64,000 nucleotides of DNA from Escherichia coli (GCF_003334815.1 NZ_QOWO01000006.1), one strand, 5' to 3'. Positions 54,011-64,000 are shown, numbered from the stretch's first letter. The notes: generated by a model from the letters alone, not told the origin. Numbers and translations are program-made.

Positions 54011-54260
54011 CAGTTTAGCTGCAATATATTAGTAAAGCTTATTACTGAGTTTGCGAATAATAAAAAAAAGCAGTCTATATAATATCTCGATATTATTTTA
54101 TTTATATTCATGCGTTGCATATGAAAGTTTATGCACCACAGCGAATATCTCTCCATTCTTAGTGATCTACCTCACCTTTTAAACGCGCTTGCCGAATTTT
54201 GTTATTTACTCTGACGAAAAATTGTCACGATACACGAAAGTTTTTCACAGGCGGCGACTC

Positions 54261-54596
54261 ATGGATAAAGAACGCATCATTCAGGAATTTGTGCCCGGCA
54301 AACAGGTCACACTGGCGCATCTCATCGCGCATCCCGGTGAGGAACTGGCGAAGAAAATCGGCGTTCCGGATGCGGGCGCAATTGGCATTATGACGCTAAC
54401 TCCCGGCGAAACGGCGATGATCGCCGGTGATTTAGCGCTGAAAGCCGCTGATGTGCATATCGGTTTTCTCGACCGATTCAGCGGTGCATTGGTGATTTAT
54501 GGCTCGGTGGGCGCAGTAGAAGAAGCGTTATCACAAACCGTCAGCGGTTTAGGTCGCTTATTAAATTATACGCTTTGTGAAATGACCAAAAGTTAA
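54261..54596 (+). CDS. eutS: Ethanolamine microcompartment shell protein EutS (permuted BMC domain)
   Basis: Track ORF 54189..54596; start taken at ATG 54261 ([32 protein letters not shown]...) giving 111 aa. Confidence 0.9.
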
Positions 54597-54608
54597 TACG
54601 AGGCATTC

Positions 54609-55088
54609 ATGAAACGAATTGCGTTTGTGGGTAGCGTCGGGGCAGGAAAAACAACGTTATTTAATGCGTTGCAGGGGAATTATACCCTCGCCAGAAAAAC
54701 ACAGGCCGTGGAATTTAATGATAAGGGCGATATTGATACGCCGGGTGAATATTTTAACCATCCCCGCTGGTATCACGCCTTAATTACCACGCTACAGGAT
54801 GTAGACATGCTGATCTTTGTCCATGGCGCAAATGACCCGGAAAGTCGGTTGCCTGCCGGGTTGCTGGATATTGGCGTCAGCAAACGGCAAATCGCCGTCA
54901 TCAGTAAAACGGACATGCCAGATGCTGACGTCGCCGCAACGCGAAAGTTATTGCTTGAGACGGGCTTCGAAGAGCCGATTTTCGAGCTAAACAGCCACGA
55001 CCCGCAAAGCGTGCAGCAACTGGTGGATTATCTGGCATCTCTCACCAAACAGGAGGAAGCAGGTGAAAAAACTCATCACAGCGAATGA
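54609..55088 (+). CDS. eutP: EutP/PduV-family GTPase (acetate-kinase-like)
   Basis: 159 aa; P-loop GSVGAGKTT. Confidence 0.92.
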   Translation: MKRIAFVGSVGAGKTTLFNALQGNYTLARKTQAVEFNDKGDIDTPGEYFNHPRWYHALITTLQDVDMLIFVHGANDPESRLPAGLLDIGVSKRQIAVISKTDMPDADVAATRKLLLETGFEEPIFELNSHDPQSVQQLVDYLASLTKQEEAGEKTHHSE

Positions 55089-55764
55089 TATTCGTGAAGC
55101 ACACGCGCGCGGCGAACAGGCAATGTCCGTGGTTCTGCGCGCCAGCATTATTACCCCGGAAGCCCGTGAAGTGGCGGATCTACTGGGTTTTACCATCACC
55201 GAATGTGATGAATCGATCCCGGTAACGGCGTCCGTGCCCGCCAGCGTGCCAGCCGACAAAACCGAAAGCCAGCGCATCCGCGAAACCATCATTGCCCAGC
55301 TGCCGGAAGGCCAGTTTACCGAAAGCCTGGTCGCACAGCTGATGGAAAAAGTGATGAAGGAAAAACAGTCGCTGGAGCAGGGCGCAATGCAGCCGAGCTT
55401 CAAATCGGTGACCGGCAAAGGCGGCATCAAAGTGATTGATGGCAGTAGCGTCAAGTTTGGTCGTTTCGACGGCGCAGAGCCGCATTGCGTGGGCTTGACT
55501 GATCTTGTGACCGGAGACGACGGCAGCAGCATGGCCGCCGGTTTTATGCAGTGGGAGAACGCATTCTTCCCGTGGACCCTGAACTACGACGAAATCGACA
55601 TGGTGCTGGAAGGGGAGCTGCATGTTCGCCACGAAGGCCAAACCATGATCGCCAAAGCAGGCGACGTGATGTTTATCCCGAAAGGCTCCAGCATCGAATT
55701 TGGTACGACATCCAGCGTGAAATTCCTGTATGTCGCCTGGCCGGCTAACTGGCAATCCCTATGA
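55063..55764 (+). CDS. eutQ: Cupin-fold ethanolamine utilisation protein EutQ
   Basis: 233 aa; GTG start at 55063 overlapping the eutP 3' end by 26 nt; MKKLITANDIREAHARGEQ.... Confidence 0.92.
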   Translation: MKKLITANDIREAHARGEQAMSVVLRASIITPEAREVADLLGFTITECDESIPVTASVPASVPADKTESQRIRETIIAQLPEGQFTESLVAQLMEKVMKEKQSLEQGAMQPSFKSVTGKGGIKVIDGSSVKFGRFDGAEPHCVGLTDLVTGDDGSSMAAGFMQWENAFFPWTLNYDEIDMVLEGELHVRHEGQTMIAKAGDVMFIPKGSSIEFGTTSSVKFLYVAWPANWQSL

Positions 55765-61742: not shown

Positions 61743-61743
61743 A

Positions 61744-61928
61744 TGCCGGATGCGACGCTTGCCGCATCTTATCCAGCCTACGGGATTGCACATGTAGGGC
61801 GGATAAGGCGTTCACGCCGCATCCGCCAGTGGCGCGGTGCAATTGCCGGATGCGACGCTTGCCGCGTCTTATCCAGCCTACGGGATTGCACATGTAGGGC
61901 GGATAAGGCGTTTACGCCGCATCCGCCA
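61744..61928. repeat. Tandemly duplicated BIME (two ~85-bp REP-pair units, 100-bp period) between eutG and eutH
   Basis: Unit 61744-61828 and unit 61844-61928 are identical except two positions (GCATCTT vs GCGTCTT; GTTCACG vs GTTTACG); each contains two inverted REP units. Confidence 0.85.
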
Positions 61929-61958
61929 ATAAATAACAACTAACAGGGAGTAAAGGCG

Positions 61959-63185
61959 ATGGGAATTAACGAAATCATCATGTACATCATGATGTTCTTT
62001 ATGCTGATAGCTGCCGTAGACAGGATCCTGTCGCAGTTCGGCGGTTCTGCTCGTTTCCTCGGTAAGTTCGGTAAAAGTATCGAAGGATCAGGCGGTCAGT
62101 TCGAAGAAGGCTTTATGGCAATGGGCGCACTGGGCCTGGCGATGGTCGGTATGACCGCGCTGGCACCGGTACTGGCTCACGTTCTCGGGCCGGTAATTAT
62201 TCCGGTTTACGAAATGCTCGGCGCTAACCCATCGATGTTCGCCGGAACACTGCTGGCGTGCGATATGGGCGGCTTCTTCCTCGCCAAAGAGCTGGCGGGC
62301 GGCGACGTAGCCGCGTGGCTATACTCTGGGTTAATTCTCGGGTCGATGATGGGGCCAACGATTGTGTTTTCCATTCCGGTGGCGCTCGGCATTATCGAAC
62401 CTTCTGACCGTCGTTATCTGGCGCTCGGCGTGCTGGCGGGCATTGTGACCATTCCGATTGGTTGTATCGCTGGTGGTCTGGTTGCTATGTACTCCGGTGT
62501 GCAGATCAACGGCCAGCCGGTGGAATTCACTTTCGCCCTGATCCTGATGAACATGATCCCGGTGATCATTGTTGCGATTCTGGTGGCGCTGGGGCTGAAA
62601 TTCATCCCGGAAAAAATGATCAACGGCTTCCAGATCTTCGCCAAATTCCTCGTTGCATTGATCACCCTCGGTCTTGCCGCTGCGGTAGTGAAATTCCTGC
62701 TTGGCTGGGAACTGATCCCCGGTCTGGATCCTATCTTTATGGCCCCTGGCGATAAACCCGGTGAGGTGATGCGCGCCATTGAAGTTATCGGTTCTATCTC
62801 CTGCGTTCTGTTAGGGGCGTATCCGATGGTGCTGCTGCTGACTCGCTGGTTTGAAAAACCGCTGATGAGCGTCGGTAAAGTACTGAATATGAACAACATC
62901 GCGGCAGCCGGCATGGTGGCAACGCTTGCCAACAACATCCCGATGTTCGGCATGATGAAGCAGATGGATACCCGCGGCAAAGTCATCAACTGCGCCTTCG
63001 CCGTTTCCGCTGCTTTCGCCCTGGGCGACCACTTAGGCTTCGCCGCTGCCAACATGAACGCCATGATCTTCCCGATGATTGTCGGCAAGTTGATCGGCGG
63101 CGTAACGGCGATTGGCGTGGCGATGATGCTGGTGCCAAAAGAAGACGCGACCGCGACTAAAACCGAAGCGGAGGCACAATCGTGA
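61959..63185 (+). CDS. eutH: Ethanolamine permease EutH
   Basis: 408 aa polytopic membrane protein; AGGGAG upstream of ATG 61959. Confidence 0.93.
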   Translation: MGINEIIMYIMMFFMLIAAVDRILSQFGGSARFLGKFGKSIEGSGGQFEEGFMAMGALGLAMVGMTALAPVLAHVLGPVIIPVYEMLGANPSMFAGTLLACDMGGFFLAKELAGGDVAAWLYSGLILGSMMGPTIVFSIPVALGIIEPSDRRYLALGVLAGIVTIPIGCIAGGLVAMYSGVQINGQPVEFTFALILMNMIPVIIVAILVALGLKFIPEKMINGFQIFAKFLVALITLGLAAAVVKFLLGWELIPGLDPIFMAPGDKPGEVMRAIEVIGSISCVLLGAYPMVLLLTRWFEKPLMSVGKVLNMNNIAAAGMVATLANNIPMFGMMKQMDTRGKVINCAFAVSAAFALGDHLGFAAANMNAMIFPMIVGKLIGGVTAIGVAMMLVPKEDATATKTEAEAQS

Positions 63186-64000
63186 ACACTCGCCAGCTAT
63201 TGAGCGTCGGTATCGATATCGGCACCACCACCACCCAGGTGATTTTCTCCCGGCTGGAGCTGGTTAACCGTGCGGCGGTGTCGCAGGTGCCGCGCTACGA
63301 ATTCATTAAACGCGAAATTAGCTGGCAAAGTCCGGTGTTCTTTACCCCTGTCGATAAACAGGGCGGTTTAAAAGAAGCGGAACTGAAAACCTTAATACTC
63401 GAGCAATATCATGCTGCGGGTATTGAGCCGGAAAGCGTTGATTCTGGTGCCATCATCATCACCGGTGAAAGCGCGAAAACCCGCAATGCTCGCCCGGCGG
63501 TGATGGCGCTCTCTCAGTCGCTGGGCGATTTTGTCGTTGCCAGCGCCGGGCCGCACCTCGAATCCGTGATCGCCGGTCACGGAGCCGGGGCACAAACCCT
63601 TTCTGAACAACGGCTGTGTCGGGTACTGAATATCGACATCGGCGGTGGCACCGCGAACTACGCCCTGTTCGATGCCGGAAAAATCAGCGGCACTGCCTGC
63701 CTCAACGTCGGTGGTCGCCTGCTGGAAACCGACAGCCACGGGCGCGTGGTTTACGCTCATAAACCGGGGCAGATGATTGTGGATGAGTGCTTCGGTGCAG
63801 GCACCGACGCCCGTTCGCTGACCGGCGCGCAGCTGGTGCAGGTGACCCGGCGGATGGCAGAACTGATTGTCGAAGTGATTGACGGAACGCTCTCACCGCT
63901 CGCGCAGGCATTGATGCAAACCGGTTTGCTGCCCGCAGGTGTTACGCCCGAAATCATTACGCTTTCTGGCGGCGTGGGCGAATGTTATCGCCACCAGCCC
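63182..64000 (+). CDS. eutA: Ethanolamine ammonia-lyase reactivase EutA, N-terminal part (continues beyond window end)
   Basis: GTG at 63182 overlapping the eutH stop (GTGA); reads (M)NTRQLLSVGIDIGTTTTQVIFSRLELVNRAAVSQ... in frame to the window end with no stop; absent from the ORF track because it is unterminated. Confidence 0.88.
   Translation, partial: MNTRQLLSVGIDIGTTTTQVIFSRLELVNRAAVSQVPRYEFIKREISWQSPVFFTPVDKQGGLKEAELKTLILEQYHAAGIEPESVDSGAIIITGESAKTRNARPAVMALSQSLGDFVVASAGPHLESVIAGHGAGAQTLSEQRLCRVLNIDIGGGTANYALFDAGKISGTACLNVGGRLLETDSHGRVVYAHKPGQMIVDECFGAGTDARSLTGAQLVQVTRRMAELIVEVIDGTLSPLAQALMQTGLLPAGVTPEIITLSGGVGECYRHQP

Follow-up and report, generated by a model that had tools for sequence, protein, structure and literature searches.

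The eut operon at the end of a 64-kb Escherichia coli sequence, with a hairpin element between eutM and eutN and an N-terminal module common to EutQ and EutT

The eut locus

We analysed a 64,000-nucleotide stretch of Escherichia coli DNA (the window), the end of which carries genes for ethanolamine utilisation (eut) in a bacterial microcompartment (BMC). The gene coordinates come from a listing of open reading frames (ORFs), from RefSeq annotation transferred from the genomes BUCT2930, 52F4 and K-12 MG1655, and from a codon-by-codon comparison with MG1655. On the plus strand, positions 54261-64000 hold eutS, P, Q, T, D, M, N, E, J, G and H and the first 273 codons of eutA (Table 1). The order eutS-P-Q-T-D-M-N-E-J-G-H-A, on a single strand and adjoining maeB, is that of the EUT1 locus. 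Further upstream, past maeB, come the divergent talA-tktB, as in every EUT1 locus. The eut genes are colinear with those of K-12, BUCT2930 and 52F4, and the EUT1 locus of Salmonella enterica LT2 has the same gene order and the same maeB flank.

A preliminary description of this DNA had listed all twelve genes as present and intact, which held. All complete genes have the same length as in K-12. The frameshift check against references, run codon by codon against MG1655, found no frameshift and no internal stop in any eut gene of the window. There are four nucleotide differences from MG1655 in 10 kb (99.96% DNA identity). The amino acid changes are limited to Y70F and M124I in EutP; the remaining Eut proteins of the window are identical, and order, maeB flank and overlaps are those of the K-12 operon (b2462-b2451). 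The 11 complete proteins matched NCBIfam Eut models over their full length, with scores that exceed the curated cut-offs. Of the models, seven are equivalogs, while those for EutS, EutD and EutE are subfamily models. The alignments begin at residue 1 for every Eut protein. Three shell classes (BMC-H, permuted BMC and BMC-P) are represented, as seen from the EutM, EutS and EutN models and from the crystallised E. coli EutS (PDB 3I96), which aligns to residues 1-111 of the window protein. The interpretation as a microcompartment operon is thus well supported by family models, gene order, flank and identity to K-12. Since the gene order, the maeB-talA-tktB flank and the DNA identity to K-12 all agree, we are nearly certain that this is the canonical 17-gene E. 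coli eut (EUT1) operon, of which the region covers the promoter-proximal two thirds and which is transcribed from the spacer that follows maeB.

The operon itself is already known, textbook material and part of the E. coli core genome. When window positions 54000-64000 were used as a 10-kb query, all 5426 complete E. coli genomes matched, and the top hits listed had 100% coverage and about 100% identity, with eut genes annotated beneath. The operon, in which there is nothing new as such, has been studied in gut colonisation and urinary-tract infection. It is also widely used for engineered nanocompartments.

Some start codons needed attention. The preliminary description had the operon and eutS begin at 54189, which is only the most upstream TTG of the open frame, where the longest ORF opens. 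With the annotated ATG at 54261, residue 1 of the product coincides with residue 1 of both the EutS model and PDB 3I96, which makes this ATG the eutS start. An in-frame ATG at 57574, upstream of eutM, would give a 111-residue EutM with an ATGA overlap with the eutD stop. The start at 57616 has a strong Shine-Dalgarno sequence (AGAGGA) upstream, and its 97-residue product aligns 1-97 to the EutM model. The ATG at 57574 and the GTG at 60528 of eutG, which open the longest ORFs, are not real starts; the one at eutM is a trap for longest-ORF gene calling.

The enzymatic roles are taken from the literature on these families (PMC5821096, PMC11334477, PMC12487888). EutH admits ethanolamine, which EutBC converts with adenosyl-B12 into acetaldehyde and ammonia; EutA reactivates EutBC and EutT re-adenosylates cobalamin. 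EutE is the main acetaldehyde dehydrogenase and yields acetyl-CoA and NADH. EutG regenerates NAD+ through ethanol formation, EutD regenerates CoA through acetyl-phosphate formation, and EutQ and EutP, as acetate kinases, turn acetyl-phosphate into acetate and ATP. The shell that retains acetaldehyde is formed by EutS, M and N with the downstream L and K. Cofactor recycling, assigned earlier to eutT, eutD, eutE and eutG, thus agrees with the literature for eutT, eutD and eutG but is wrong for eutE.

The window ends inside eutA, as had been recognised, and the eutA-eutB junction is thus outside its view. In K-12, the MG1655 annotation places the cryptic prophage CPZ-55 precisely between eutA and eutB, which had also been stated correctly. 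If the same prophage cut the operon here, as in MG1655 and BW25113, the twelve intact genes would be part of a crippled, Eut-negative locus. BW25113 is indeed eut-negative owing to this interruption (PMC11334477), and the window is 99.96% identical to K-12. However, there are 5 single-nucleotide polymorphisms against MG1655 over 13.9 kb of the window, so the window does not come from a K-12 laboratory strain. Of the genomes examined, the two nearest have the eutB start 11 nt after eutA, and the EutBC, EutL/K and EutR genes follow directly. The K-12 junction is also a minority among the complete E. coli genomes (244 of the 5426), whereas 4964 have the direct eutA-eutB junction. We therefore regard an interrupted operon as very improbable; judged from these population frequencies, CPZ-55 is probably absent from the strain.

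Table 1. Positions of the eut genes and associated features in the window
Feature	Position	Strand	Description
Hairpin directly after maeB stop	53986-54011	+	perfect 11-bp hairpin, -19.5 kcal/mol, z -6.2; T8 run precedes
eutS	54261-54596	+	permuted BMC shell protein, 111 aa; NCBIfam NF012012, 247 bits, aligned 1-111/111; identical to K-12
eutP	54609-55088	+	PduV/EutP-family small GTPase-like protein, annotated acetate kinase, 159 aa; NF012011, 347.8 bits (cut-off 258)
eutQ	55063-55764	+	233 aa, GTG start; NF012001, 501.8 bits, 1-233/233; PDB 2PYT
EutQ residues 1-46	55063-55200	+	EutT-homologous N-terminal module
eutT	55761-56564	+	EutT-type ATP:cob(I)alamin adenosyltransferase, 267 aa; NF011595, 570.7 bits
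EutT residues 1-46	55761-55898	+	EutQ-like N-terminal module, ~40-46 residues
eutD	56561-57577	+	phosphotransacetylase, 338 aa; NF007233, 410.7 bits, and TIGR00651, 330.8 bits, both above cut-off
eutM	57616-57909	+	major hexameric BMC shell protein, 97 aa; NF012018, 212.9 bits, 1-97/97
eutM-eutN intercistronic RNA element	57917-57999	+	83 nt within the 106-nt spacer; H1 57917-57942, H2 ~57944-57984, conserved tail CUUUUACCUGAAAUA
eutN	58016-58303	+	pentameric vertex shell protein, 95 aa; NF011992, 210.1 bits
eutE	58315-59718	+	CoA-acylating acetaldehyde dehydrogenase, 467 aa; NF011927, 738.1 bits (cut-off 403)
eutJ	59729-60565	+	actin/Hsp70-fold putative chaperone, 278 aa; NF011660, 402.5 bits
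eutG	60555-61742	+	iron alcohol dehydrogenase, 395 aa; NF011998, 888.2 bits, 1-395/395
BIME (bacterial interspersed mosaic element), eutG-eutH spacer	61741-61928		two tandem 100-nt units, each with two inverted REP (repetitive extragenic palindromic) palindromes, four in total
eutH	61959-63185	+	ethanolamine permease/facilitator, 408 aa; NF011665, 873.6 bits
eutA	63182-64000 (cut by window end)	+	ethanolamine ammonia-lyase reactivase, 273/467 codons, GTG start; NF007991 aligned 1-273/467, 592.7 bits (cut-off 799); fragment identical to K-12

Conserved gene overlaps

Five junctions of the operon overlap, exactly as the preliminary description had them. Read straight from the sequence, they are eutP/eutQ (26 nt, with the GTG start), eutQ/eutT (ATGA), eutT/eutD (ATGA), eutJ/eutG (11 nt) and eutH/eutA (GTGA). 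Their number is ordinary: 5 of 11 eut junctions overlap, compared with 6 of 29 same-strand junctions elsewhere in the K-12 equivalent of the window, and the neighbouring hyf operon alone has 4 of 11.

We scanned species-representative genomes with an EutQ alignment, which gave 55 loci, mapped the twelve genes in each locus and counted the overlapping junctions. The loci span Escherichia, Citrobacter, Salmonella, Klebsiella, Buttiauxella, Pluralibacter and Morganella to Telmatospirillum and the betaproteobacteria Chromobacterium, Iodobacter and Xenophilus. Calculated on 45-54 loci, or about 50 species, the overlap was kept in 100% of loci for eutT/eutD, 91% for eutJ/eutG, 90% for eutP/eutQ and 82% for eutH/eutA, and these four have lasted despite sequence divergence down to 50%. 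The eutQ/eutT overlap was kept in 35%. Within the eutP/eutQ overlap lie the codons for the first eleven residues of EutQ (MKKLITANDIR), which do not vary among 10 homologues from Escherichia/Shigella, Citrobacter and Klebsiella. The same overlap has been reported for Salmonella (PMC12487888).

The overlaps might be artefacts of start-codon choice or chance juxtapositions without a role. The eut start codons were assigned from sequence and two of them are GTG, the overlap count does not exceed that of hyf, and the eutQ/eutT overlap occurs in just 35% of species. Yet every protein aligns to its model from residue 1 onwards, the EutQ N-terminus inside the overlap is invariant in the homologues compared, the eutP/eutQ overlap is also reported for Salmonella, and all overlaps but eutQ/eutT are kept by 82-100% of species in spite of divergence. 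An artefact is therefore highly unlikely. The overlaps are real and constrained, in agreement with translational coupling. Most likely, the eutP/eutQ, eutQ/eutT, eutT/eutD, eutJ/eutG and eutH/eutA overlaps would couple translation of the adjacent cistrons in an operon that would be transcribed from the spacer after maeB and whose products would run ethanolamine catabolism inside the microcompartment. Two points weigh against this picture. The coupling is deduced from sequence, and the positions of eutBC, eutLK and eutR lie beyond 64000, so that the window holds only the first twelve genes, and a complete and functional operon in this strain is a prediction.

Ahead of its GTG, the eutQ frame stays open for some 25 codons (window 54990-55090). 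Public databases contain EutP-EutQ fusion ORFs of 384-396 residues with differing breakpoints, as well as a 243-residue variant consistent with an A6-to-A5 change. We considered programmed frameshifting or slippage at the A6 run in the eutP/eutQ overlap and rejected it on account of these differing breakpoints. For the same reason, the sporadic fusions are most likely due to scattered indels near the overlap, or to sequencing errors, with the open eutQ frame allowing read-through into eutQ.

Several loci in the set depart from the common arrangement. In Citrobacter koseri NCTC10786 the eut locus looks degraded, as EutQ and other proteins match in segments, EutT has an internal stop and junction spacings are aberrant. 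Citrobacter enshiensis and Citrobacter sp. NCU1 carry a 156-nt insertion between eutQ and eutT, and C. enshiensis a further insertion of about 155 nt between eutE and eutJ; the NCU1 locus ends before eutJ. Both junctions are tight or overlapping in most of their relatives. In Morganella and its relatives (seven loci, L043-L049) the best eutP-like match is not located upstream of eutQ and gives an apparent overlap of about -765 nt. This suggests that the genes are ordered differently there or that eutP is absent.

An RNA element between eutM and eutN

A terminator-pattern scan flagged a hairpin immediately after eutM. This hairpin, H1, is the first part of an intercistronic element with a second stem-loop, H2, and a conserved tail. 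Both hairpins are stable and GC-rich, with folding energies of -17.4 kcal/mol (z -4.4) for H1 and -17.3 kcal/mol (z -2.4) for H2. When the spacers were compared side by side, most genera had H1 as a 9-10-bp hairpin about 8-10 nt past the eutM stop. H2 is composite: its outer stem is CUCUCC/GGGGAG, its internal loop is U-rich and confined to the 5' side, and its inner stem has an entirely different sequence from genus to genus. It is followed by the near-invariant tail UUUACCUGAA and then by the eutN Shine-Dalgarno sequence. Minimum-energy folds of individual species yield the same H1/H2 architecture.

MAFFT alignment of the raw eutM-eutN spacers followed by RNAalifold gave no structure, as the stems were thrown out of register by the variable loops. 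We therefore seeded a covariance model with six close sequences and realigned the spacers. The model found one hit per locus, always in the eutM-eutN spacer, and its sole hit in the 64 kb of the window was at 57916-58001 (92 bits). Elsewhere in the 1.15 Mb searched there was no convincing hit, only one weak reverse-strand match (E ~0.1) in locus L050, which adjoins that locus's own element hit. A second model, built afterwards, detected the element in Morganella (65-68 bits) and also in Buttiauxella, Pluralibacter, Entomohabitans and Xenophilus. The hits in Iodobacter and Chromobacterium were weak (E 0.25), yet they lie at the syntenic position.

In the resulting alignment, which had been fitted to the covariance model and whose pairing and covariation figures should be read with this in mind, pairs formed in 95% of cells. 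The figure was 79% in shuffles, none of the 500 of which reached 95%, and 41-65% when the partners were slid. Compensatory changes on both sides occurred in 16 of 22 pairs. RNAalifold independently predicted the same three helices from this model-based alignment.

The element is single-copy and present in 5407 of the 5426 complete E. coli genomes; since it occurs once per genome, it is not a repeat family. We found no RefSeq annotation beneath it in the 5409 matching E. coli records, which represent 5408 genomes. Rfam 15 gave no hit to it at E<=1 over 11 kb and only noise at E<=10 over the 161 nt around it, and our literature search found no description of a terminator or hairpin between eutM and eutN. 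The element is missing from Salmonella arizonae/diarizonae, the Klebsiella pneumoniae/oxytoca group, Citrobacter amalonaticus/sedlakii/koseri, Pseudocitrobacter and Yokenella. These lineages have REP-like palindromes or a short spacer instead; in the Salmonella representatives sampled, REP-like palindromes stand where the window has the hairpins.

Three further ideas about this spacer were dropped. A pseudoknot that would pair the H2 internal loop with the ACCUGAAAU tail is not conserved between genera. The same is true for anti-Shine-Dalgarno pairing of CUCUCC, or of the region past the eutM stop, with the eutN Shine-Dalgarno sequence. As a promoter, TTTACCTGAAAT was rejected, since it has no acceptable -10 at 16-18 nt and the promoter scan had no hit there.

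Possible role of the eutM-eutN element

Intercistronic hairpins are known to set differential expression within operons, either as REP stabilisers, as in malE-malF, or as internal leaky intrinsic terminators. The eutM-eutN element resembles both in its stable GC-rich hairpins right after the most highly expressed cistron, with a downstream sequence that is moderately rich in U here, and REP palindromes occupy the same site in lineages that lack the element. In contrast to a REP or a plain terminator, it is single-copy and locus-specific, with a conserved composite H2 and the near-invariant tail, neither of which would be required in those. Terminator-like hairpins between eut cistrons are also found in Enterococcus, where they are controlled by the ANTAR protein EutV (PMC5821096). 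However, there are no EutV/W genes here, the loops of the eutM-eutN hairpins deviate from the ANTAR hexaloop pattern, the enterobacterial locus is under EutR, and nothing seen here points to regulated antitermination.

Could the hairpins be functionless leftovers, such as the fossil of an operon boundary or the decayed remnant of a mobile palindrome? Several lineages, namely Salmonella, the K. pneumoniae/oxytoca group, C. amalonaticus/koseri, Pseudocitrobacter and Yokenella, manage without them, and the U-tracts behind the hairpins are weak. However, mere leftovers are not what the compensatory double changes in 16 of 22 pairs and the excess of pairing over shuffled and slid controls point to. 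In addition, the element keeps its syntenic position in both Gamma- and Betaproteobacteria and its tail hardly changes. We therefore consider this explanation unlikely.

A proteomic study of the E. coli Eut microcompartment reported abundances of about 96 for EutM, about 1 for EutN and about 24-39 for EutE, B, C and L (PMC11334477). The hairpins probably act as a leaky terminator and/or a 3'-end stabiliser. They would uncouple the abundant hexamer EutM from the scarce pentamer EutN by raising eutM relative to eutN, and the EutM:EutN stoichiometry would be set by leaky termination, processing or 3'-end stabilisation. Two observations speak against such a role. The U-tracts are weak to moderate after both hairpins, with 3-6 U in the first 8 nt after the stems (means of 3.6 after H1 and 4.1 after H2), and there is no clear step-down in abundance after eutM, as EutB, C and L are at least as abundant as EutS, P and D (PMC11334477). 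This last point makes a strong terminator unlikely. Since the U-tracts are moderate and the abundances run from ~96 for EutM through ~24-39 for EutE/B/C/L to ~1 for EutN, we prefer a leaky terminator and/or 3'-end stabiliser over a strong stop. In Salmonella and Klebsiella, REP palindromes would have assumed the role of the element.

The element bears on the question of how one operon yields very different amounts of hexameric and pentameric shell proteins. Salmonella, the usual model, lacks the element in the subspecies sampled, which may explain why it went unnoticed.

An N-terminal module shared by EutQ and EutT

EutQ consists of N-terminal helices that bridge shell and cargo (PMC12487888) and a C-terminal cupin, and the Pfam EutQ domain is confined to residues 85-232. 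In EutT, Pfam Cob_adeno_trans spans residues 95-246 only. A Pfam scan thus leaves the N-terminal stretch of about 45 residues outside any Pfam domain in both proteins, and it is here that they resemble each other. BLASTP of the two N-termini gave 34% identity over 50 residues (E 0.005). For profile comparison we used the first 55 residues from the 55 loci, and hhalign matched EutQ to EutT with a probability of 83% and an E-value of 9e-6, colinear from the initiator Met. As controls we used the N-termini of ten other Eut proteins and reversed sequences; 10 of 11 had E>=0.035, and EutT against EutN gave 0.0011. The joint EutQ/EutT alignment of residues 1-46 is gapless, with R11, T31 and A34 invariant.

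The module is not restricted to these two proteins. A profile search of 1.84 billion representative proteins returned 151 hits, among them EutQ- and EutT-like proteins. It also occurs in stand-alone proteins of about 100 residues that correspond to the EutQ N-terminal region alone, N-terminally in a phosphotransacetylase, and C-terminally in a family of about 270 residues without a Pfam match. Two members that were scanned gave weak hits to Pfam E3_binding, and the motif TP-x-AR-x-(L/V)-A recalls that of the peripheral-subunit-binding domain. This distant likeness is below significance.

In Salmonella, helices H1/H2 of EutQ bind the shell at the EutM/EutL interface (PMC12487888). According to the alignments above, EutT 1-46 is homologous to these shell-binding helices. 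Unlike Salmonella EutQ, EutT is without the cargo-binding part, H3/H4. Because the homologous EutQ helices bind the shell, EutT may be recruited to the shell as EutQ is. The module thereby bears on the route into the compartment taken by accessory enzymes that, like EutT, have no classical encapsulation peptide. The two proposals taken jointly, that the eutM-eutN hairpins would be an undescribed locus-specific cis-regulatory RNA of EUT1 operons and that EutT would be shell-recruited through its EutQ H1/H2-like module, are possible, and we put the combination forward tentatively.

EutQ residues 6-92 (window 55078-55338) also matched positions 2-88 of the NCBIfam EutA model NF007991 (37 bits, E 1.6e-9). 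A relation between EutQ and EutA was considered and dropped, as BLASTP of EutQ against E. coli EutA shows no similarity and manual alignment concurs. The match may be a quirk of the model, possibly from EutQ-N-like extensions in its seed sequences.

Spacers and neighbouring sequence

The hairpin directly after the maeB stop probably serves as the maeB terminator, and its shape may be bidirectional. The maeB-eutS spacer is 292 nt long and AT-rich (GC 0.44 in 54000-54499). It must house the EutR-dependent eut promoter; a sigma-70 consensus scan of the spacer gave no hit.

The eutG-eutH spacer contains a BIME, whose two direct repeats (61741-61828 and 61841-61928) are 97% identical. It matches Rfam naRNA4 (RF02564) with 71.8 bits, above the gathering score, and has the palindromes expected of a REP/BIME. 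Across species the spacer varies in length from 27 to 548 nt, and the BIME is therefore a lineage-specific insertion.

Among the complete genomes, none of those top-listed was colinear with and identical to the window over the three segments searched. The best match over 54000-64000 is 52F4, which has 2 mismatches in the last 22 kb of the window. Its match to window 25001-50000 is in two pieces, with a span about 1.3 kb longer than the query.

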